Assembly: GCA_029858565.1 (NCBI GenBank)
Contig: JAOUEV010000001.1
Span: 1 to 64,000, forward strand
Source: Nitrospirota bacterium
GTDB lineage: Bacteria; Nitrospirota; UBA9217
DNA length: 64,000 nt
Reading direction: 5' to 3'
The notes under the pieces: model-generated
Told to the model about the DNA's origin: nothing
Seen by the model: the letters and a program-made list of their open reading frames with translations, nothing else
The model's database searches: none
Made by a program: the position numbers and the translations under genes
Shown here: positions 24,116 through 63,379 of the stretch, in pieces
How positions within the stretch are numbered: the first letter of the stretch is position 1
Layout: each line of letters starts with the position of its first letter

Positions 24116-25348
24116 ATGAAGAAGTTTCTCGCACTATTTGCAGTACTGGCGCTGACCATGGTCAGCTCAGCCGCGTTCGCTGAAGTATCGGTCAGCGGCA
24201 GCATCGACATCCGCAATCTGTCAACCAACAATGCTTCGGACATGAATTCTGACAAATCGGACGAGAACCGCACCACCCAGGAGCGTATCCGCATCAATGT
24301 GGACGCGAAGCACGAGGGTGTGAAAGGACGGGTCACCCTGGAAAACGACTGGTATGTCTGGGGTTCGGCGACCAACGGCTGGGCCGGGTCCGCCGTCGAG
24401 AGCAAGAGCGGTGCACTGACGATTCGTGAGGGCTGGATCGATTTCAGCATGCCCTTCGGTATGCCTGGCCACGTCAAGGTCGGCCATCAGATGCTGCAGC
24501 TTGGCAATGGCTGGTTCTTCCGCGCCAACAAGTACGGCTCCGATGCCTGGCTAATCGGCTTCCCTGGCAAGAATACCTTCGCGTTCGTTGACGTGAAGGC
24601 TGCCGAGGGTCTCAACGCTGGTTCCGACGACGTTGATGCCTATGTGCTGCTCGACACCTACAAGATCGATGACAAGAGCTCCGTCGGCGCCTATTTCGTG
24701 CGCGTGATGGATCGCCAGGGCAAATTCATGGCTGGTGGCGGCGCGGATGCTGAGGGGACCCTCGATACGATCGGCCTGCACTACAATGGCATGGTTGGCC
24801 CGCTGAAGCTGGCTGCTGAGTTTGACATGCAGAGTGGCGAGGCTGATCCGGGTGCTGGCGCCGCAACGACGGATCTGTCCGGCAAGCAGATCATAGTTCA
24901 GGCCAGCATGCCGCTGGATGCGCTGACGATCAACGCGACCTTTGCCATGGGCAGCGGCGACGACGCGACCACGGCTGAGGAAGAGGGCATCACGGTGGCG
25001 CTGGACAAAGATCCGCACTATACCTTCGTCTATGAGTACTTCACGAAGACCGCTGCGGGCGCGACGAACACGGGCTTCGCGAACACCACTGCCATGAACC
25101 TCGGCGCTTCCTACAAGGTCTCCGGCAATGTGACCGTGGCCCTCGACTACTGGATGCTGACCGCGACCGAGGTTGGCGCAGGTGTTGATGATGAGGTCGG
25201 CTCGGAAATCGATGCCAAGATCCTCTGGAAGCTGAATGACAACCTTTCCTGGAACTGGTCACTCGGCCGCTTCATGCCGGGCAAGTTCTATGGCGCGAAT
25301 CCGGATGATGTTGATGCAGTCCAGGGTATCCTGAGCTACAAGTTCTAA
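24116..25348 (+). CDS. Major outer-membrane porin-like beta-barrel protein
   Basis: Signal peptide (AFA), amphipathic strands, C-terminal LSYKF, strong RBS AGGGAGG, strongly biased codon use. Confidence 0.8.
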   Translation: MKKFLALFAVLALTMVSSAAFAEVSVSGSIDIRNLSTNNASDMNSDKSDENRTTQERIRINVDAKHEGVKGRVTLENDWYVWGSATNGWAGSAVESKSGALTIREGWIDFSMPFGMPGHVKVGHQMLQLGNGWFFRANKYGSDAWLIGFPGKNTFAFVDVKAAEGLNAGSDDVDAYVLLDTYKIDDKSSVGAYFVRVMDRQGKFMAGGGADAEGTLDTIGLHYNGMVGPLKLAAEFDMQSGEADPGAGAATTDLSGKQIIVQASMPLDALTINATFAMGSGDDATTAEEEGITVALDKDPHYTFVYEYFTKTAAGATNTGFANTTAMNLGASYKVSGNVTVALDYWMLTATEVGAGVDDEVGSEIDAKILWKLNDNLSWNWSLGRFMPGKFYGANPDDVDAVQGILSYKF

Positions 25349-27730: not shown

Positions 27731-28357
27731 CTATCCCATCTTCTTGTAGGTAAGCTCCATTACGGTCTTTTCAAGAGCGGCAACATCGCGGAGAACCTCC
27801 TGCATACGGGTCCAGGTTGTTGTATTGTAAGCCGCGTCCTTGATGCTGTTAACATTGATCTTTACGTTGAGAGCAGAGCTTTGTGCGCAGGCTTGTGCAA
27901 GGAGTACAGCAACCCCGGCATCGCTCACAGCGGCCACATTGCCTATCTCTGCGGCGCGGAGGGCCAGTTTGGCCACTTCCAATGACTTCAGGCCTATCTC
28001 AAATGGCACCTGGCAGGCTTTTTTAAGGGCTTCCTGCATCTTTGCGCTTCTGGCTGCTTTCTCCTCGTCTGTTGCTTTGGGCATCTTATATACATCGGAA
28101 AGAGCCCCGTAAGCCTCCGTATCTTTTTGGATCAGGTCCTGCATCTCGATGCGGAGTTTTTCTGAGTCGTCGAGCAACGCTTCTATCTGGGATTGAACAT
28201 CCTTGTACTTATCCTTGCCGAGCGTTAGATTTCCAACCATACTGACCAATGCCGCTCCCAGCGCTCCCGTGAGCGCAGCTACACTGCCGCCGCCAGGTTC
28301 GGGAGATTTACTTGCCAGCTTATCAAGAAAATGACGCAAAGGCTGATCAATATACAT
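27731..28357 (-). CDS. Cyclodeaminase/cyclohydrolase family protein (FTCD C-terminal, FchA-like)
   Basis: LASKSPEPGGGSVAAL, SDAGVA, LNVKIN. Confidence 0.9.
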   Translation of the reverse strand: MYIDQPLRHFLDKLASKSPEPGGGSVAALTGALGAALVSMVGNLTLGKDKYKDVQSQIEALLDDSEKLRIEMQDLIQKDTEAYGALSDVYKMPKATDEEKAARSAKMQEALKKACQVPFEIGLKSLEVAKLALRAAEIGNVAAVSDAGVAVLLAQACAQSSALNVKINVNSIKDAAYNTTTWTRMQEVLRDVAALEKTVMELTYKKMG

Positions 28358-28426
28358 GTTGTTACCTCTCGTAATATGTTATTATTCAAGATTATTTTCG
28401 CTTCAAGCCAGTTGCAGTGGGGAGGT

Positions 28427-28456
28427 AGAATAAGTGAAAATGCGGTGTTTTGTCAA
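28427..28456 (-). promoter_or_regulatory. Sigma70 promoter for the cyclohydrolase-folD operon
   Basis: Minus strand TTGACA-18 bp-TATTCT. Confidence 0.5.
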
Positions 28457-28457
28457 C

Positions 28458-28532
28458 AAAAAAATGCCCCCCTCGCAAACATCGCTGTTCTTAAGGGAGG
28501 CATTTCAGGGGAGGCTCTATTTCTAGTAATTG
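28458..28532 (-). ncRNA. Candidate small regulatory RNA (~75 nt)
   Basis: Promoter TTGACT(28567-28562)-17-TATAGT(28544-28539); terminator AAATGCCTCCCTT...GAGGGGGGCATTT plus U tract; no ORF; two CCUCCC motifs. Confidence 0.55.
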
Positions 28533-28561
28533 ATATGAACTATATCTACAATTTTAGAACA

Positions 28562-28620
28562 AGTCAAGGAAAAAATATAAAAACTTTTCCTTGACTCAAA
28601 ATGTTGCGGCTTGGTATTAT
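28562..28620. promoter_or_regulatory. 12-bp inverted repeat providing divergent -35 elements; + strand promoter for ccdA
   Basis: AGTCAAGGAAAA-N11-TTTTCCTTGACT; + strand TTGACT-18-TATTAT with TG extension. Confidence 0.6.
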
Positions 28621-28647
28621 ATCAACCTAATCTTAAGGAACATTACT

Positions 28648-29376
28648 ATGGATATTTCCCATGGGATTTCAATTGCTTCAATTTTCCTCTCCTTGTTCAT
28701 GGGGATCATATCATTTGCATCCCCATGCATTCTGCCTTTGATTCCCTCTTATGTTTCCTATATAACCGGGATCAGTTTTGACGAGCTGGTTGGTCCTGAT
28801 TTTCGTCGAAAGAACATTCGAACCACTGTTCTTCACTCACTCGCATTTGTCGCGGGGTTTACCGTGGTCTTTGTCCTGCTCGGTGCAACGGCCAACCTTT
28901 TGGGACAGATGCTGATCGAGTACTTGAAACCCATCAGGATCATCGGCGGGGTACTCTTGATCGTTATGGGGCTTTTTGTCACAGATATCGTGCCGATCCC
29001 ATTCTTGCAGCGCGATGCGAAGTTGCATCTCAAGACGAGACCCGCCGGTTATATCGGTACGTTCCTTGTCGGGGTCATTTTCGCTGCTGGATGGACGCCA
29101 TGCACCGGTCCCTTTCTTGCAGCTGTGCTCATGCAGGCGGCGCAGTCCGAGACCATGATGACCGGCATGGTGTTCCTTGCGTTCTACTCGATCGGCATCG
29201 GCATTCCGTTCATTCTGTCAGCTGTTGCTATCAGTGCGTTCCTGTCCTCGTTCAAGAGAGTGAAGGAGTACTTGCATGCGATCAAGATCGGGAGCGGGGT
29301 GATCCTGGTGGTCATGGGGATCCTGCTCATCACTGATAAGTGGACATTGTTGACATCATACCTCATGAATCCTTAG
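28648..29376 (+). CDS. ccdA: Cytochrome c biogenesis protein CcdA (DsbD transmembrane domain)
   Basis: SFASPCILPLIPSY and AGWTPCTGP motifs; about 6 TM. Confidence 0.93.
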   Translation: MDISHGISIASIFLSLFMGIISFASPCILPLIPSYVSYITGISFDELVGPDFRRKNIRTTVLHSLAFVAGFTVVFVLLGATANLLGQMLIEYLKPIRIIGGVLLIVMGLFVTDIVPIPFLQRDAKLHLKTRPAGYIGTFLVGVIFAAGWTPCTGPFLAAVLMQAAQSETMMTGMVFLAFYSIGIGIPFILSAVAISAFLSSFKRVKEYLHAIKIGSGVILVVMGILLITDKWTLLTSYLMNP

Positions 29377-29392
29377 GGGGAGAACAATTCGT

Positions 29393-29812
29393 ATGGCAGC
29401 TGATTCTCTGGACATTCTGAAGGACAAGGACGCTCCGCTGTATACCATGGGTGTGGCTGCCAAGCTTGTTGGCACAACGGCCCAGACACTGCGGTTGTAC
29501 GAGAAACACGGCCTTATCCTGCCGACTCGTGAACGCAGAAACCGGCTGTATACGGAGAACGACATCAAGTGGTTGCGCTGTATCCGGGAACTGATCCACT
29601 CAAAGAAGATCAGTATTGAAGGGATCAAAAAACTGCTGGATTATGCTCCCTGCTGGGAGATCAAGGATTGTCCTGATGACCGCCGGGTGGTCTGCTCCGC
29701 ATTCACGAATAAGAGCAAACCCTGCTGGGAAACAACGCGCTGCCGCAAGGAGGGGGATTGCTCGACCTGCGTGATCTTCCTGCGCAGCGGAAAAAAAGCC
29801 GCGAAAAAGTAG
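29393..29812 (+). CDS. MerR/HspR-like regulator with Cys-rich C-terminal two-CW-like domain
   Basis: YTMGVAAKLVG..QTLRLYEKHGLI..RLY; PCWE..C..C..PCWE..C..CSTC. Confidence 0.85.
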   Translation: MAADSLDILKDKDAPLYTMGVAAKLVGTTAQTLRLYEKHGLILPTRERRNRLYTENDIKWLRCIRELIHSKKISIEGIKKLLDYAPCWEIKDCPDDRRVVCSAFTNKSKPCWETTRCRKEGDCSTCVIFLRSGKKAAKK

Positions 29813-30602: not shown

Positions 30603-32201
30603 CTAGAGAATATATCTCTCAGCCGTGAGCCTATGGTGGATCATGCACTGAAGCATCTGAAGCTCGTTCTGGTCGAACCAGGTAACACCGCAGTATCCGC
30701 AGCGGTCGATCTCAATAAGATGCGACATGCTGTAGAATTGCCGGCGCATGGGATTATTGCATTTCGGACAGGGAAGCAGCGGTCCATTTGCCTTGCCGGA
30801 ATTCTGACGCATGCGGTAGAGCTGCCGCGATTGATTTTCTTTGAGCACCGTCCGGGCGAGTGCGGTGATCCGCTCGCTGCAGGGTTGATCCCGACCGGTC
30901 CGGGCGATGATCCGGGGAACCTTATCAGAATCAACAAGTGTGCCGGCGCAGAAGGAACATTGTTGGATGATCGTTCCTTCGTACGAAGCAGTGATCAGCG
31001 GCTGGCGACAGGAGGGGCAGGCATAGGGAGAAAGTGTCCGCTCTCCTTCCATGAGCCGTTGGCCGAAGATGAGACTTATCAGAGGATCCTTCCAGGCACG
31101 GAGCACGTCCCCACCAGCCGAGGTCGATATCCATGTGAGCGGTGTGAGCCAGGGAAGGAGCGCAAGTTCGTTCAGCGGAAGCGGACCCTGCCACTGCTGG
31201 CTGGGACTCATGGCATAATAGGAGGGTTTGGCGGACGAAGGGGCGGAAGAGCTCATCGGAATGGTGTTCCGCTCAAGGTCTGCCCGTCTGATACGAGCCA
31301 TGCCAAGCAGAACATTGATCCGCTTTCCGATAGGCGGATGGGTCGAGAACAGGTCGGACCAGAATCCCTCCGACTCATCAAGGTTCGACGCCTGAGGATT
31401 GACGATGCAGAGCATCTCATAGCCGCTGCCGATAAAGCCGGCGCCGCGCCAACTGCGGGTGAGCAGATGCAGTGCTTCGGCTAACGCGATCGGATTGCGG
31501 GTCATCCTGACAGATGCCGCATCGGCCCGATACTCCCGTTCTCGGGAGATGAACATGTTGAGGAGATGGCCGAGCTGGAGAAGCAGCCACGCGAGCAGGA
31601 ACGCGGGCAATGAGAATATCCGGTTCTGCGAGAACGTACGTATACGTTCCAACGCCGAGGAAAGGGTGCCGAACAGGCTGGCGGCGACCGTTGTTTCCAG
31701 GCAGTCGCCGGACAAGATATGATGGGCCTCGTGAGCGGCAACCGCTTCGATCTGCGGGCGGCTTAACCGGGACAGCAGCCCTTCGGTGATCGCGATGAGA
31801 GCGGTCCCCTTGAGGTCGGCGGCAGCAAGGGCGTTCAGGGAAAGGGAGGGGATGACCGCGCAGCGGATCTTCTGCTTCCCTCCGGTCACCACGCGCAGCT
31901 CTTCGATGATGTTGAGAAATATCCGGTGGACCTCATCCTGCGGATCCGGGGGCCGTGCGTCAAGACCGCGAATGACGCTGTCGACGGTGTTGTATGCAGC
32001 GAACCAGAAGTGGATCCCTGCCGCAAGCAGTGCAGCGGTCAGGAGCACGAGCCAGAAGCGGGGGGAGATCTGGTAGAGGCCGTTCAGGGAAGGGAATGTC
32101 AGAATGAATCCGATCGCCGCGTACAGGCACAGAAGGACCATGAAAAAGATGGCGATGCGCCAGTTCGTGCGTCGTTCGATATCAATGAAAGTGATGGGCA
32201 T
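30603..32201 (-). CDS. HtpX-family M48 metalloprotease with C-terminal GYF_2-like and two zinc-ribbon domains
   Basis: AHEAHH, SREREYRAD, FSTHPPI; QGPLPLNEL..TWI; CPSC..CSFC and CPKC..CGYC. Confidence 0.85.
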   Translation of the reverse strand: MPITFIDIERRTNWRIAIFFMVLLCLYAAIGFILTFPSLNGLYQISPRFWLVLLTAALLAAGIHFWFAAYNTVDSVIRGLDARPPDPQDEVHRIFLNIIEELRVVTGGKQKIRCAVIPSLSLNALAAADLKGTALIAITEGLLSRLSRPQIEAVAAHEAHHILSGDCLETTVAASLFGTLSSALERIRTFSQNRIFSLPAFLLAWLLLQLGHLLNMFISREREYRADAASVRMTRNPIALAEALHLLTRSWRGAGFIGSGYEMLCIVNPQASNLDESEGFWSDLFSTHPPIGKRINVLLGMARIRRADLERNTIPMSSSAPSSAKPSYYAMSPSQQWQGPLPLNELALLPWLTPLTWISTSAGGDVLRAWKDPLISLIFGQRLMEGERTLSPYACPSCRQPLITASYEGTIIQQCSFCAGTLVDSDKVPRIIARTGRDQPCSERITALARTVLKENQSRQLYRMRQNSGKANGPLLPCPKCNNPMRRQFYSMSHLIEIDRCGYCGVTWFDQNELQMLQCMIHHRLTAERYIL

Positions 32202-32291
32202 GGAGAACCGGCAGGTGCCGGGATGCAGAATCCAGTGTCCGGGAGAGGCCGGGGATGTTCAATACGGTCGCCTCGGTCTCCCAAATCATGA

Positions 32292-32855
32292 CTACTTGCC
32301 TTTCAGGCTCAGGTTCACGCTCGGCGTGGCGCGTGCGGCCTCCTCAGCTTCAAAATATTCCTCTGGTTTGAATGAGAACAAGGAGGAAACAATGTTGTTC
32401 GGGAATACCTCGATCCGGGTACGGAAGTTCGCCACCAGGTCGTTGTAAAGCTGGCGGGCGAAGGATATGCGGTTCTCCGTGGAGGTGAGCTCCTCCTGCA
32501 GCTGCATGATGTTCTTGTTGCTCTTCAGGTCCGGGTAGTTCTCCATGACCGCGAACAGTTTGCCGAGCGCTTGTGTGAGCATATTCTCGGCTTCGGCCCG
32601 GGAATGCGGTCCTGACGCGCCCACTGCTTTCGCGCGGGCAGAGATGACCTTTTCCAGGGTATCCTGCTCGAATTCCATGGCGCCTTTTACGGTCGCGACC
32701 AGGTTTGGGATCAGGTCGTGACGCCGTTTGAGCTGCACATCGATCTGCTTCCACGATGCCTGCACATCGTTCCGCGCGGCGATCAGTCCGTTATAGATCA
32801 TGACCATCCAGATGACGACTGCCGCGAGTACTCCGAGAACGATCAGTCCGACCAT
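32292..32855 (-). CDS. lemA: LemA family protein
   Basis: IDVQLKRRHDLIPNLV, ENYPDLKS, TENRISFARQLYN, FPNNIV. Confidence 0.95.
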   Translation of the reverse strand: MVGLIVLGVLAAVVIWMVMIYNGLIAARNDVQASWKQIDVQLKRRHDLIPNLVATVKGAMEFEQDTLEKVISARAKAVGASGPHSRAEAENMLTQALGKLFAVMENYPDLKSNKNIMQLQEELTSTENRISFARQLYNDLVANFRTRIEVFPNNIVSSLFSFKPEEYFEAEEAARATPSVNLSLKGK

Positions 32856-32913
32856 GGCCCCTCCCTGAAGCATTTCGTTGATACTAGATTATAACAGAAC
32901 GGCAACTCAGGCG

Positions 32914-33753
32914 CTACCGGTCTACGAAGAGTTCCTGCGACGACGGGGGGAATATGCCGCGCGATTCGGCTTCCGCGATGAGCCGCCGGACCGCTGCGGT
33001 CCCTTGCTCGCCTAGGTCGAGAGAGAGGTCATTCACATACAGATCGATGTGGTTCTGCATGACCCCGGCATCCATCTCCTGACTGTGCTCTCTGCAGTAG
33101 TCGAGGACCTCGGCACGGTTCATTCTTGCATAGACCAGACTGTCCCGTATTGCCTGTTCGATACCCAGGAGTGTAGCGGCGCCAAGAGTTCTTTTTCCGA
33201 GGATGCCGCCCAGCGGGATCGGAAGGCCGGAGTAGCGCTCCCACCATTCACCGAGGTCCAGCAGCATTTCCAGGCCGTACTGCGGGTAGGTGAACCTGCT
33301 TTCATGGATAATGAGACCGGCAGCAACACGGCCCTGTGCGACTGCGTCCATGATCCGGTCAAAGGGCATGACCACGATATTCCTGATCGAGGGCTGATAC
33401 ATCCGCAGGAGCAGATAGGCTGTCGTCAGTTCTCCAGGAATGGCCAGATCGCCTTTGCCAAGGTCCGCAAGATGCGTTCCCGGACGCGCGACGATCAAGG
33501 GGCCGCAGCCTCTGCCGAGCGCTCCTCCGGAACGGAGCAGGACATACCTGTCGCGGAGATGTCCAAAGGCATGATAGGAGATCTTTGTCACGTCCAGAAC
33601 TTCTTTGCGCGCCAGATGGTTGAGCGTTTCCACGTCCTCGAGCTGTTCCTGGAAGGCCAGGCCCGGTGCCTTGACCTTGTTGTGAACGAGACCGTAGAAG
33701 ATGAAGGTGTCGTTCGGACAGGGAGAATATCCGATGGTGATGGTTCTTGTCAT
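32914..33753 (-). CDS. mqnD: 1,4-dihydroxy-6-naphthoate synthase (futalosine menaquinone pathway)
   Basis: GYSPCPNDTF, GALGRGCGPL, IIHESRFTY, HIDLYVN. Confidence 0.93.
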   Translation of the reverse strand: MTRTITIGYSPCPNDTFIFYGLVHNKVKAPGLAFQEQLEDVETLNHLARKEVLDVTKISYHAFGHLRDRYVLLRSGGALGRGCGPLIVARPGTHLADLGKGDLAIPGELTTAYLLLRMYQPSIRNIVVMPFDRIMDAVAQGRVAAGLIIHESRFTYPQYGLEMLLDLGEWWERYSGLPIPLGGILGKRTLGAATLLGIEQAIRDSLVYARMNRAEVLDYCREHSQEMDAGVMQNHIDLYVNDLSLDLGEQGTAAVRRLIAEAESRGIFPPSSQELFVDR

Positions 33754-34475
33754 GGTTGCCACGATCCCAGGATATGCATGACTGCCTGCTGTGCCGCGCG
33801 GGCAGCCCGTGGTATGTCCCATCTGCTGAGATCCCGGTCCTCGACGATGTTGGAGATGCCGCGGACCTCGAGCCACGGCACATTGTGCAGTTCCGCAACC
33901 TGCGCCGCTGCCGCGCCCTCCATGTTCTCGCATAGGCCCTGATACCGTTCTTCGAGCTCACGCGCTCGTGCCGCGGTGCCCGTGCAGGTCGAAAGGGTGA
34001 TGAAGGGGCCCGCGTGCACAGTTACACTTGGCCCGCAGGACCGGAGCGCGGCGAGCGCCTGGTCCAGGACCGGGGCAGGCGCGGGGTACGTATTGAAGAT
34101 GGTCGAGTTCGTGGTCTTGAGCAGAGGGATCCCGATGAACTCTGTGTCCTTGAAACCATCATTGGTGAGCACGCCCTCATCTCCGGCGATCTCTTCCCGG
34201 GCAAGCACAACATCGCCGATCCTGGCTCCTGATGAGGGATACGCTCCACCCACGCCGAGTACGAAGAGCACGGCAGGAGCATAGCGGGTGATCATGATCG
34301 TTGCGCCATGAGCGGCATTGACCTTGCCCATTCCCGCCACACAGAGAACAACTTGTTTGCCCGCAAGCATTCCTTCAAAGACTGTCGTGGTGCCAATGGT
34401 CACTCTGTTGACGTTTTCCATGGACTGCCGGAGGATATCGGCTTCTGCATCAACGGAAGTGAGCAGCGCTATCAT
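33750..34475 (-). CDS. mqnB: Futalosine hydrolase (PNP/MTAN fold)
   Basis: GMGKVNAA, GVGGAY, ENMEGAA, EVRGISN..EDRD..WDI; overlaps the mqnD start. Confidence 0.88.
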   Translation of the reverse strand: MIALLTSVDAEADILRQSMENVNRVTIGTTTVFEGMLAGKQVVLCVAGMGKVNAAHGATIMITRYAPAVLFVLGVGGAYPSSGARIGDVVLAREEIAGDEGVLTNDGFKDTEFIGIPLLKTTNSTIFNTYPAPAPVLDQALAALRSCGPSVTVHAGPFITLSTCTGTAARARELEERYQGLCENMEGAAAAQVAELHNVPWLEVRGISNIVEDRDLSRWDIPRAARAAQQAVMHILGSWQP

Positions 34476-61821: not shown

Positions 61822-63379
61822 GAGTCTGTCGGACTTAGCAATCTGATCCGACGACTGTTTGAACCAATTTCTAGAATCATCAGCCTTATGATCGGTTCTC
61901 TTTGATCAAATATGGTTCTGATTTGTTCTTTCTTATCGATTCAACTCAAGGTATGCAGCCTTTTTAAGTTCCAGGCGATGCAAACGAGGTCCCATTCGCC
62001 TTGTACGGCTACGAAACCGCGCAGCAGGAACTGCCGGAAGCCCATAACCGCTTTGATGATGCCGAAGACCGGTTCCACCGTGCTCTTGCGTTTGGCATAG
62101 ACCTTTTTGCCTGCTTGAGTCCGGAGACGATGCTTCATCCTGGTGACCGCATCGGCATCAGGCGGCGGTGGCAACGGTTCACGGAACCGATCCAAGAGCG
62201 GCTGGTTATGCTGATCCCGGCCAAAAGCAAGGTACGGCGTAATCTTGTTCTTCTCGCAGGCACCGACGTTGGCTTCGCTGTAGAAACCGTTGTCGGTGAT
62301 AATTGCATCCACCGTGCCGAGTTCTTCGGGTAATGCAGCGAGGTTTTCGATTGTCGGTTCCACTTCGCGCTTATCGTTTGTCTGTTGGGTTACATGGCTG
62401 GCGACGATCATCATGGATTCGATATCAACACCAGCCTGAGCATTGTAAGCCTGTTCAAAGCCGCCGCCGGACTTCTTCATGATCCGGGATTCGCCGTCCG
62501 TCAGGTTGACCTGGTCTTTGCCTTGGATACCGGGTTCGGGAGGTTCCGGTTTTCGGCCACGAGACTTTTTGCCGGTTTGCTGTTCTTTTTCAGCGCGCTC
62601 GGCCAGCTTTTTATCATAGGCTTCTTTTTCCTGGGCAAAACGCTCTGCGGCCCGCCGTTCGATCTCGGCTTTGGCGTTGGCTATGGCCTTGAGACGCTCG
62701 GTCCGCCGGGATAGTTCTTCCGGGATGCTAATTCCATCCGGTAGATCAGCCTGATCAGCTGCTTCGGCCTGGCGGAGAAGCTCGGCAACTTCTGCCTTGA
62801 GCTGTTCTTCGAGTTTGCATGCGTGGGCATAGCTCAGGGCTTTATGCTTCGAGGCATTTGCCTTGACCTTGGTCCCGTCAAGACTGACAGTGCCCAGCTT
62901 CAAGACCCCCGCCTGTCCGGCGATCAGGAGGATCTGGACGAACAGCGGCTTGAGCTGCGACAGAAACCGCTTCCGGAAAACGGCGATAGTGTCATGATCC
63001 GGATGCGTATTTGCAGCAATGAATCGGAAGGCAACCGAATCATAGGTGCTCCGCTCCAGTTTCCGGCTGGAGAACACCCCAGTGGCGTATCCATAGAACA
63101 GAAGGGCCAGAAGCATCTCGGGATTATATGGCTGGGAACCGCGCCCCGCATATGCGGCTTTCAAAGAGCTGAGATCGAGCTGATCCAAGATCTCGACGAC
63201 GAATCGGGCCAGGTGATCTTCGGGCAGCCAGTCCTGAAGCGACGGCGGCAGCAAATAGAGTGTTGATTGATCGTAATTGATAAACTTTGCGCTCATTTCT
63301 GTTCAACCTCGCTACGTGCGATTGAATAGCTGAGCGGACTATAACATATTTGATTTAGTCGGGAAAGTCCGACAGACTC
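61822..63379 (-). mobile_element. IS1182-family insertion sequence (1558 bp)
   Basis: Perfect 15-bp TIRs GAGTCTGTCGGACTT / AAGTCCGACAGACTC; CTAG direct repeats at 61818-61821 and 63380-63383. Confidence 0.93.
61941..63296 (-). CDS. IS1182-family DDE transposase
   Basis: LLPPSL..W, FSSRKLE, PDHDTI, LDGTKVKANAS, QAYNAQ, DNGF, VEPVFG. Confidence 0.93.
   Translation of the reverse strand: MSAKFINYDQSTLYLLPPSLQDWLPEDHLARFVVEILDQLDLSSLKAAYAGRGSQPYNPEMLLALLFYGYATGVFSSRKLERSTYDSVAFRFIAANTHPDHDTIAVFRKRFLSQLKPLFVQILLIAGQAGVLKLGTVSLDGTKVKANASKHKALSYAHACKLEEQLKAEVAELLRQAEAADQADLPDGISIPEELSRRTERLKAIANAKAEIERRAAERFAQEKEAYDKKLAERAEKEQQTGKKSRGRKPEPPEPGIQGKDQVNLTDGESRIMKKSGGGFEQAYNAQAGVDIESMMIVASHVTQQTNDKREVEPTIENLAALPEELGTVDAIITDNGFYSEANVGACEKNKITPYLAFGRDQHNQPLLDRFREPLPPPPDADAVTRMKHRLRTQAGKKVYAKRKSTVEPVFGIIKAVMGFRQFLLRGFVAVQGEWDLVCIAWNLKRLHTLS

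Follow-up and report, generated by a model that had tools for sequence, protein, structure and literature searches.

The Hfq-dependent, seed-type small RNAs (sRNAs) of Proteobacteria share a layout in which a variable 5′ part is followed by a short conserved single-stranded seed, a Rho-independent terminator and a U tail, and it is a common arrangement for a regulator to be encoded divergently from its sRNA. The cia-dependent sRNAs (csRNAs) of streptococci, which occur in several copies, carry an unpaired region complementary to the Shine-Dalgarno (SD) sequence together with an anti-AUG element. For RoxS/RsaE of the Firmicutes (RF01820), passages of one report describe four C-rich regions (CRR1-4) that pair with ribosome-binding sites (RBSs) and block initiation, for example on ppnKB, and a dependence on ResDE/SrrAB, a system whose regulated genes include those for the biosynthesis and assembly of cytochromes (PMC4409812); a second report describes lowered levels of tricarboxylic acid (TCA) cycle and folate mRNAs (PMC6158497). 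In the parts of the open-access literature that our search covered, no sRNA is described for Nitrospirota or Thermodesulfovibrio. Here we analyse a stretch of 64,000 nt of contig JAOUEV010000001.1 from a Nitrospirota bacterium (the window), in which a predicted sRNA gene lies on the minus strand between ccdA and the folate genes fchA and folD. A preliminary description of the same DNA had proposed a trans-acting sRNA with anti-SD motifs at this position.

A predicted small RNA gene beside ccdA

The gap between ccdA (plus strand, ATG at 28648) and fchA (minus strand, ATG at 28357) measures 290 bp and, read on the minus strand, contains three promoter-like sites and one strong hairpin (Table 1). 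Judged from its anatomy and its conservation in relatives, we consider that it probably encodes an independently transcribed, functional small RNA. In the order of transcription the predicted RNA comprises an A/U-rich 5′ stretch, the C-rich motif CCUCCCCUGAA, a long hairpin and a U7 tract; its 5′ end was placed 7–8 nt past the -10 box of the promoter P1, and its 3′ end at the last U of the tract. The hairpin is built from a second C-run, GCCUCCC, as its 5′ arm and GGGGGGC as its 3′ arm. The preliminary description had the RNA letter-perfect, from about 28531 to 28458, and the P1 promoter, the GNRA-capped hairpin with its U tract and the second TTGACA promoter immediately beyond it are all present as it had reported. 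Its placing of the element between folD and ccdA holds on the ccdA side only: the adjacent downstream gene is fchA, and folD comes second.

The element is confined to a subset of one family. A DNA search with the intergenic region in 40 relatives matched 13 of the 24 genomes from the same family and none of the 16 from ten other families. A covariance model of 83 positions and 14 base pairs was built on nine aligned homologues. It found one copy in each of 18 of the 64 family genomes (this genome included, at 28455–28538 with 82 bits), spread over eight of 19 genera, and in ten of the 32 high-quality genomes (≥90% complete, ≤5% contaminated); searching at class level took in no genomes beyond these 64. 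In G007 a further, nineteenth copy is truncated where the contig ends, and a second match in G012 proved to be an unrelated terminator behind a gene. The phylum sample of 151 genomes included 123 from 21 other Nitrospirota families, and in none of these did the model find a match. Scanning metagenome contigs for an exact 21-mer added 16, all with the same layout as far as they reach, one being cut inside P1 and another just after P2, the promoter that follows the U tract. Starting instead from CcdA, the search returned mostly loci from distant Nitrospira and Geobacter, with the element in one of 80 (L018); by its CcdA relatives the organism falls among Nitrospirota metagenome-assembled genomes.

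Within the RNA, the C-rich motif is the best conserved stretch. On the model-based alignment of the 18 copies, in which the fit to the model favours structure somewhat, the motif (CCtCCCCTGA-A) shows at least 90% identity in each column apart from the U column, which lies between 60 and 90%, whilst the first 25 nt of the RNA are mostly under 60% and the hairpin differs between copies in both length and sequence. The anti-SD stretch that the preliminary description took for the seed is thus conserved, and the pattern is typical of seed-type sRNAs. In predicted ensembles the mean probability that the motif is unpaired is 0.80 in this genome and ranges from 0.36 to 0.88 in the homologues. Two of these, G009 and G011, carry a lineage-specific 5′ element, CUUUAGGG, that is able to pair with CCCUGAAG.

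The hairpin is preserved through sequence change. The 75-nt stretch folds at −27.4 kcal/mol against −15.9 ± 3.1 in shuffles (z = −3.65), and none of 200 shuffles was as stable. Across the alignment, 96.0% of hairpin cells are paired, compared with 86.2 ± 1.2% in shuffles (0 of 500), and sliding the partners by one to three columns lowers pairing to 55–70%. Both sides have changed in eight of the 14 pairs, amounting to 21 cells where shuffles give 5.3 ± 1.9 (0 of 500). A GNRA apical loop is present in 12 of the 18 homologues, as counted from the alignment rows.

Consensus matches by themselves are feeble evidence for promoters: over 1.9 kb, a consensus scan found five promoter-like sites where shuffled sequence gives 2.2 ± 1.4. 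It is conservation, rather than agreement with the consensus, that lifts the element above chance. The -35 box of P1, the spacer motif TTCTAAAA and a -10 box of the form TAnnnT are kept in the 17 relatives' loci and in the 16 metagenome contigs, as far as they can be read in the one contig that ends inside the promoter. In those relatives that have fchA, P2 takes the form TTGACA-17/18-TA(A/T/C)TCT or TAAGTT and follows right after the U tract. The block TATAATACCAAAG of the predicted ccdA promoter, P_ccdA, is nearly invariant among relatives. This genome contains no second copy of the sRNA and no other site that resembles the P1 core. Divergent from the RNA, ccdA is found in 16 of the 17 relatives' loci with 64–83% identity by tblastn, the seventeenth locus being cut 83 nt upstream.

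In the mechanism that we propose, the sRNA would be transcribed from P1, its own sigma-70-type promoter, divergently from the operon of ccdA and a merR-like gene, and transcription would stop at the RNA's own strong intrinsic terminator. The product would consist of a fast-evolving 5′ stretch, then CCUCCCCUGAA, which is conserved and for the most part unpaired, and lastly a 3′ hairpin and U tail, where Hfq would probably be bound. The C-run, with its anti-SD core CCUCC, would pair in trans with G-rich RBSs of the type GGGGAGG, sometimes preceded by UUCAG, on one or more mRNAs, and this pairing would block the initiation of translation. We hold the chances of this full reading, a trans-acting sRNA that blocks RBSs, to be a little better than even. 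The preliminary description had likewise inferred a trans-acting sRNA, and the kind of element it had in mind is supported, whilst the targets that it named are not.

Table 1. Predicted and annotated features around the sRNA gene, in coordinates of the window
Feature	Coordinates	Strand	Remarks
Predicted sRNA, ~74 nt	28458..28531	-	transcribed from 28531 to 28458; both ends inferred
P1, predicted sRNA promoter	28539..28567	-	TTGACT (28567-28562), 17 nt, TATAGT (28544-28539); 10/12 consensus positions
C-rich motif CCUCCCCUGAA, presumed seed	28504..28514	-	predicted single-stranded; includes anti-SD core CCUCC
Terminator hairpin	28461..28506	-	apical GCGA loop; fold and covariation; base of stem is GAAA paired with U tract
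U7 terminator tail	28458..28464	-	ends 1 nt ahead of P2 -35 box
P2, predicted separate fchA-folD promoter	28427..28456	-	TTGACA (28456-28451), 18 nt, TATTCT (to 28427); 10/12
Perfect 12-bp inverted repeat, AGTCAAGGAAAA-N11-TTTTCCTTGACT	28562..28596		A/T-rich spacer between back-to-back -35 boxes of P1 and P_ccdA (both TTGACT)
P_ccdA, predicted, divergent from P1	28591..28620	+	TTGACT-18-TATTAT, TG extension; 10/12
ccdA	28648..29376	+	DsbD_TM thiol-disulfide transporter, cytochrome c maturation (Pfam); constant divergent neighbour
MerR-family regulator	29393..29812	+	HspR-like helix-turn-helix (HTH) and Cys-rich tail (Pfam/NCBIfam); directly 3′ of ccdA
fchA	27731..28357	-	methenyl-tetrahydrofolate cyclohydrolase, FTCD_C 227.6 bits (Pfam/NCBIfam); first gene past P2
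folD	27670-26819	-	next gene after fchA

Candidate targets

A canonical hfq gene (109 bits) is present on contig C126 (52060-52245) of this genome, G000, in which no CsrA was found. A further pair of Hfq-like domains, scoring 54 and 57 bits, lies side by side at C38:36246-36623. Targets were sought in this one whole genome, in which a home-made caller of open reading frames (ORFs) gave 3564 genes with approximate starts; a 16-nt seed was scored against positions -40 to +15 of 3524 starts. The energies averaged −10.8 kcal/mol (standard deviation 3.6), with the best, tenth and thirty-sixth at −25.4, −21.8 and −20.3. Ten shuffled seeds reached −23.1, −20.1 and −18.4 at best for the same ranks, the real seed being the stronger.

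The preliminary description had singled out the RBS regions of lemA and of a porin gene in the window as near-complementary to the RNA. For lemA this is true of the present genome, where the site scores −21.5 kcal/mol and ranks 13 of 3524; it is not conserved in relatives. Among 30 lemA loci examined, out of 56 genomes with a match, the extended site is unique to this genome, and the median energy is −12.5 in 12 sRNA-bearing genomes against −12.65 in 18 without the sRNA. The gene lies about 4 kb from the sRNA in conserved synteny. Genes for LemA, an M48 peptidase, a MoaD/E fusion and the MerR-like protein appear syntenic with ccdA and the sRNA (30603–34475 in the window, and in relatives), and in at least nine other genomes lemA and the sRNA share a contig, 4–5 kb apart. 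The porin site (Porin_4, 24116-25348) is unremarkable, at −13.6 and rank 764 of 3524. The start regions of ccdA and fchA gave background energies where their starts were correctly located, the rows of several loci, in which a misplaced ccdA start fell on the sRNA antisense, having been left out.

Two high-ranking candidates were rejected. The gene in first place, for a lipoprotein on contig C98 (−25.4), has homologues in only two of the other 63 genomes of the family, neither of which carries the sRNA, and the gene in third place, for a protein of 106 aa on C135 (−24.6), belongs to a multi-copy family in which the extended site occurs in none of the 29 other loci examined. Sites matching the 10-mer TCAGGGGAGG exactly number 47 in five sRNA-bearing genomes, compared with 20 for the reversed control. 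We examined 40 of the 42 non-self sites, leaving out two in G011; among the 25 ORFs of at least 60 aa downstream of such sites, those of G000 included, there was no pair of homologues at E ≤1e-3.

Two further genes offer leads. The best intergenic site in the genome, GCAUUCAGGGGAGGCG (−29.8 kcal/mol), is in the 5′ untranslated region of a gene for a 141-aa protein (C24:799) that matches no Pfam family; a second site, UUUCAGGGGGUG, lies on the SD of the same gene. Thirteen homologous loci were compared. Six of them are g10 orthologues, and in five of these (C/U)(A/U)GGGGAGG(C/U), or CAGGGAGG in G048, is retained some 150 nt ahead of the start; the remaining g10 locus is cut. The site is weak in G003, missing from G023 and absent from four sRNA-free orthologues. 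At rank 2, the gene for a C26 peptidase/GATase (C54:1237) has the SD GGGGAGG (GGGAGG in G003) in seven of the nine sRNA-bearing genomes examined; the mean energy over all nine is −17.0, against −13.6 in 20 others, one locus with its 5′ end cut by the contig having been dropped. Several sRNA-free genomes also have GGGGAGG at this gene.

The leader of the 141-aa gene is structured and conserved. At C24:560-800 (L230-L240), a promoter-like site is followed by AGCGGACGGACGCGCCCG...CGGGAGAGAGGGCUGG, after which come a hairpin and a U tract. G010, G008 and G067 have this leader too, and in the g10 orthologues its 3′ end, made up of the hairpin and the U tract, recurs. It has no match in Rfam and seems a candidate for an attenuator or riboswitch not yet catalogued.

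Weighing the alternatives

Several observations weigh against a trans-acting, RBS-blocking RNA. The excess of the real seed over shuffled seeds proves little, because an anti-SD-like seed fits any strong SD, and the exact complement of the 11-mer occurs four times in the genome where base composition would lead one to expect about 2.6. Among the candidates examined, no target has conserved complementarity; the trends at the 141-aa gene and the C26 gene follow phylogeny, and are therefore leads rather than evidence. The conserved GAAA may in part persist only through its pairing with the U tract. The C-run is itself subject to drift within genus g3, where it takes the forms CCGCUCC, CCACCCC and GCGACAC although CUGAAAAUG is retained. 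In genus g19 the canonical RNA is found in three of 15 genomes, and in four others examined (G062, G060, G059 and G057) the RNA body is unrelated even though P1, the T tract and P2 have been preserved. Because the g19 bodies differ, the canonical seed must be dispensable in many relatives. The bodies between P1 and the T tract in this genus are about 70–200 nt long, and G064 has a long insertion at the locus. Overall, the alignments suggest that the canonical seed is under selection in several genera and is not indispensable family-wide.

These relatives lend some weight to an explanation in which the body of the RNA is not the functional part at all. Selection would then act on the back-to-back promoters, the A/T-rich spacer, an insulating terminator and a T tract serving P2 as an UP-like element, leaving the transcript as a by-product or as an RNA that acts via a protein instead of by pairing. 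Besides the g19 genomes, two observations speak for this: at almost every locus the P2 -35 box begins right at the U tract, and the promoter module, as traced by a DNA search with 28540-28632, occurs in 31 of the 64 family genomes, more than the 18 with the canonical RNA; the 31 are an undercount, two known carriers (G001 and G004) having been missed. However, a by-product would not be expected to hold a motif of 11 nt at ≥90% in eight genera amid drifting flanks. The compensatory changes preserve a long hairpin beyond the needs of a minimal terminator, and the motif accompanies P1 even in loci without P2 and fchA. We regard this explanation as unlikely.

The RNA might alternatively be a cis-acting leader or attenuator. 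P1 would in that case be an upstream, regulated promoter of fchA-folD and the hairpin a conditional terminator, read through in response to a metabolite, a protein or the ribosome, with P2 providing basal expression. The RNA does lie directly upstream of the folate one-carbon operon and on the same strand in 13 of the 18 loci (12 of the 17 relatives' loci), folate one-carbon operons often carry riboswitches, and both C-runs could pair with the single G-run, so that alternative structures are possible in principle. Against this, the unit is kept where fchA is not downstream: in G022 and G042 the RNA is followed by another small gene, which has an extended -10 promoter to itself, G023 has neither P2 nor fchA there, and two further relatives' loci have no fchA within reach. 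Rfam 15 gave no match at gathering score in the whole window or in eight relatives' loci, and at E ≤10 only eight weak matches between 28300 and 28700, all far below the cut-offs. No antiterminator is apparent, the region 5′ of the hairpin being unconserved and not complementary to its 5′ arm, and pairing of the first C-run with the G-run still leaves a hairpin ahead of the U tract. The lack of both a known family and an antiterminator disfavours a riboswitch or attenuator, and a long GC-rich stem with U6–U8 would point to efficient termination. Since P2 is conserved, fchA-folD appears independent of P1, as the preliminary description had supposed in stating that the downstream genes need not depend on the transcript; the known-riboswitch or leader alternative that it had also raised is disfavoured, as the RNA stays by ccdA where the downstream gene differs. 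A short unit that travels with ccdA, next to a fchA-folD operon with a promoter of its own, is thus what the compared loci suggest. A protein-dependent attenuation device would be compatible with the data, and as a whole we think a cis-acting leader quite improbable.

That the locus encodes a micro-protein is hardly credible: a 16-codon AUG frame and an 87-aa ORF on the opposite, plus strand (28331-28594) both exist in this genome, but the AUG is preceded by C-rich rather than G-rich sequence and is lost in three of the 18 homologues (G009, G011 and G023), and the antisense frames, of 33–128 aa and varying phase, are missing in five of 16 loci, so that the 87-aa ORF is unsupported, no reading frame being conserved across the RNA and two of the 16 loci being closed in all six frames. 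The statement in the preliminary description that the RNA has no ORF is accordingly right for frames of at least 40 aa on the minus strand and overlooks the 16-codon frame, which has no SD.

Neighbouring genes, possible regulation and comparison with known systems

The gene 3′ of ccdA encodes a MerR-family protein whose HspR-like HTH falls below the NCBIfam cut-offs and whose C-terminal tail contains eight cysteines and two CWE..C motifs. It is present in 15 of the 17 relatives' loci at 81–93% identity, exceeding the conservation of CcdA. This position suggests the MerR-like protein as a candidate regulator of the divergent promoters, for which the inverted repeat and the P1 spacer TTCTAAAA are possible operators. 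In relatives the AGTCAAG/CTTGACT cores of the repeat are constant and the outer arm bases variable; the repeat may merely reflect two mirrored -35 boxes around a common A/T-rich region.

Several features of the surroundings are recorded here in their own right. In this genome and in g10 loci (L100, L103, L107-L109), the fchA leader that starts from P2 (28358-28426, minus strand) has a CUCCCC run roughly 7–45 nt before the SD (GAGGUG or GAGAGG), which may let the leader sequester its own RBS. In G003, G009 and G011 the sequence downstream of P2 is GC-rich for 150–250 nt or more before any gene, the gene past this stretch being fchA in G003 and G009, with none found in G011; the GC-rich stretches of these three genomes have no match in Rfam. 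A DDE transposase (DDE_Tnp_1, DUF772) is encoded near the end of the window at 61941-63296 on the minus strand.

An sRNA gene with a defined seed in eight genera would provide a concrete entry to post-transcriptional control in an uncultured lineage, and its covariance model can be added to annotation pipelines. The fixed place of the gene by ccdA and a Cys-rich MerR-like gene, often upstream of folate genes, suggests a testable link between redox state or respiration and the translation of genes with G-rich RBSs. Carried to its furthest extent, this line of thought would make the RNA a RoxS-like redox riboregulator of independent origin in an uncultured Nitrospirota class, acting globally as an anti-SD sRNA under the same control as ccdA, which the adjacent Cys-rich MerR/HspR-like sensor would exert through the back-to-back promoters; it would also make the slot from P1 to the T tract and P2 a site for sRNA cassettes whose body has been repeatedly replaced or remodelled, as in g19. 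So extended a scheme is speculative, and we doubt it in this form.

Like the folate-gene leaders in Rfam (THF, named for tetrahydrofolate, THF-II and ZTP), the element lies ahead of folate genes, here fchA-folD, and has a terminator hairpin. It differs in matching none of them, in preceding an operon with its own conserved promoter, and in following ccdA rather than fchA. With the csRNAs it has in common an unpaired region, here a predicted one, complementary to the SD, although it is present in one copy and has no conserved CAU 5′ of the C-run. The layout of the Hfq-dependent sRNAs of Proteobacteria is the same as that predicted here, and the gene is likewise divergent from an operon that includes a transcription factor; no Rfam family of that class matches at this locus, however. 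The nearest functional analogue appears to be RoxS/RsaE. RoxS/RsaE is a short trans-acting sRNA with its own promoter, an intrinsic terminator and conserved C-rich regions, as is predicted from sequence for the present RNA, and the redox ties of RoxS/RsaE have a counterpart, by neighbourhood alone, in the position of this RNA between cytochrome-maturation and folate genes. The two differ in that RF01820 gives no match at gathering score in the window and is not among the eight weak matches around the locus, in that the four CRRs of RoxS/RsaE contrast with one exposed C-run here, the second being held in the 5′ arm of the terminator stem, and in that RoxS/RsaE belongs to Firmicutes and this RNA to a member of the Nitrospirota with an hfq gene. 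On these comparisons the RNA is not a member of RoxS/RsaE and would form a separate family of C-rich anti-SD sRNA. Elements of this kind being well known, it is an addition to the catalogue more than a surprise: likely an uncatalogued family of a familiar type, the trans-acting anti-SD sRNA.

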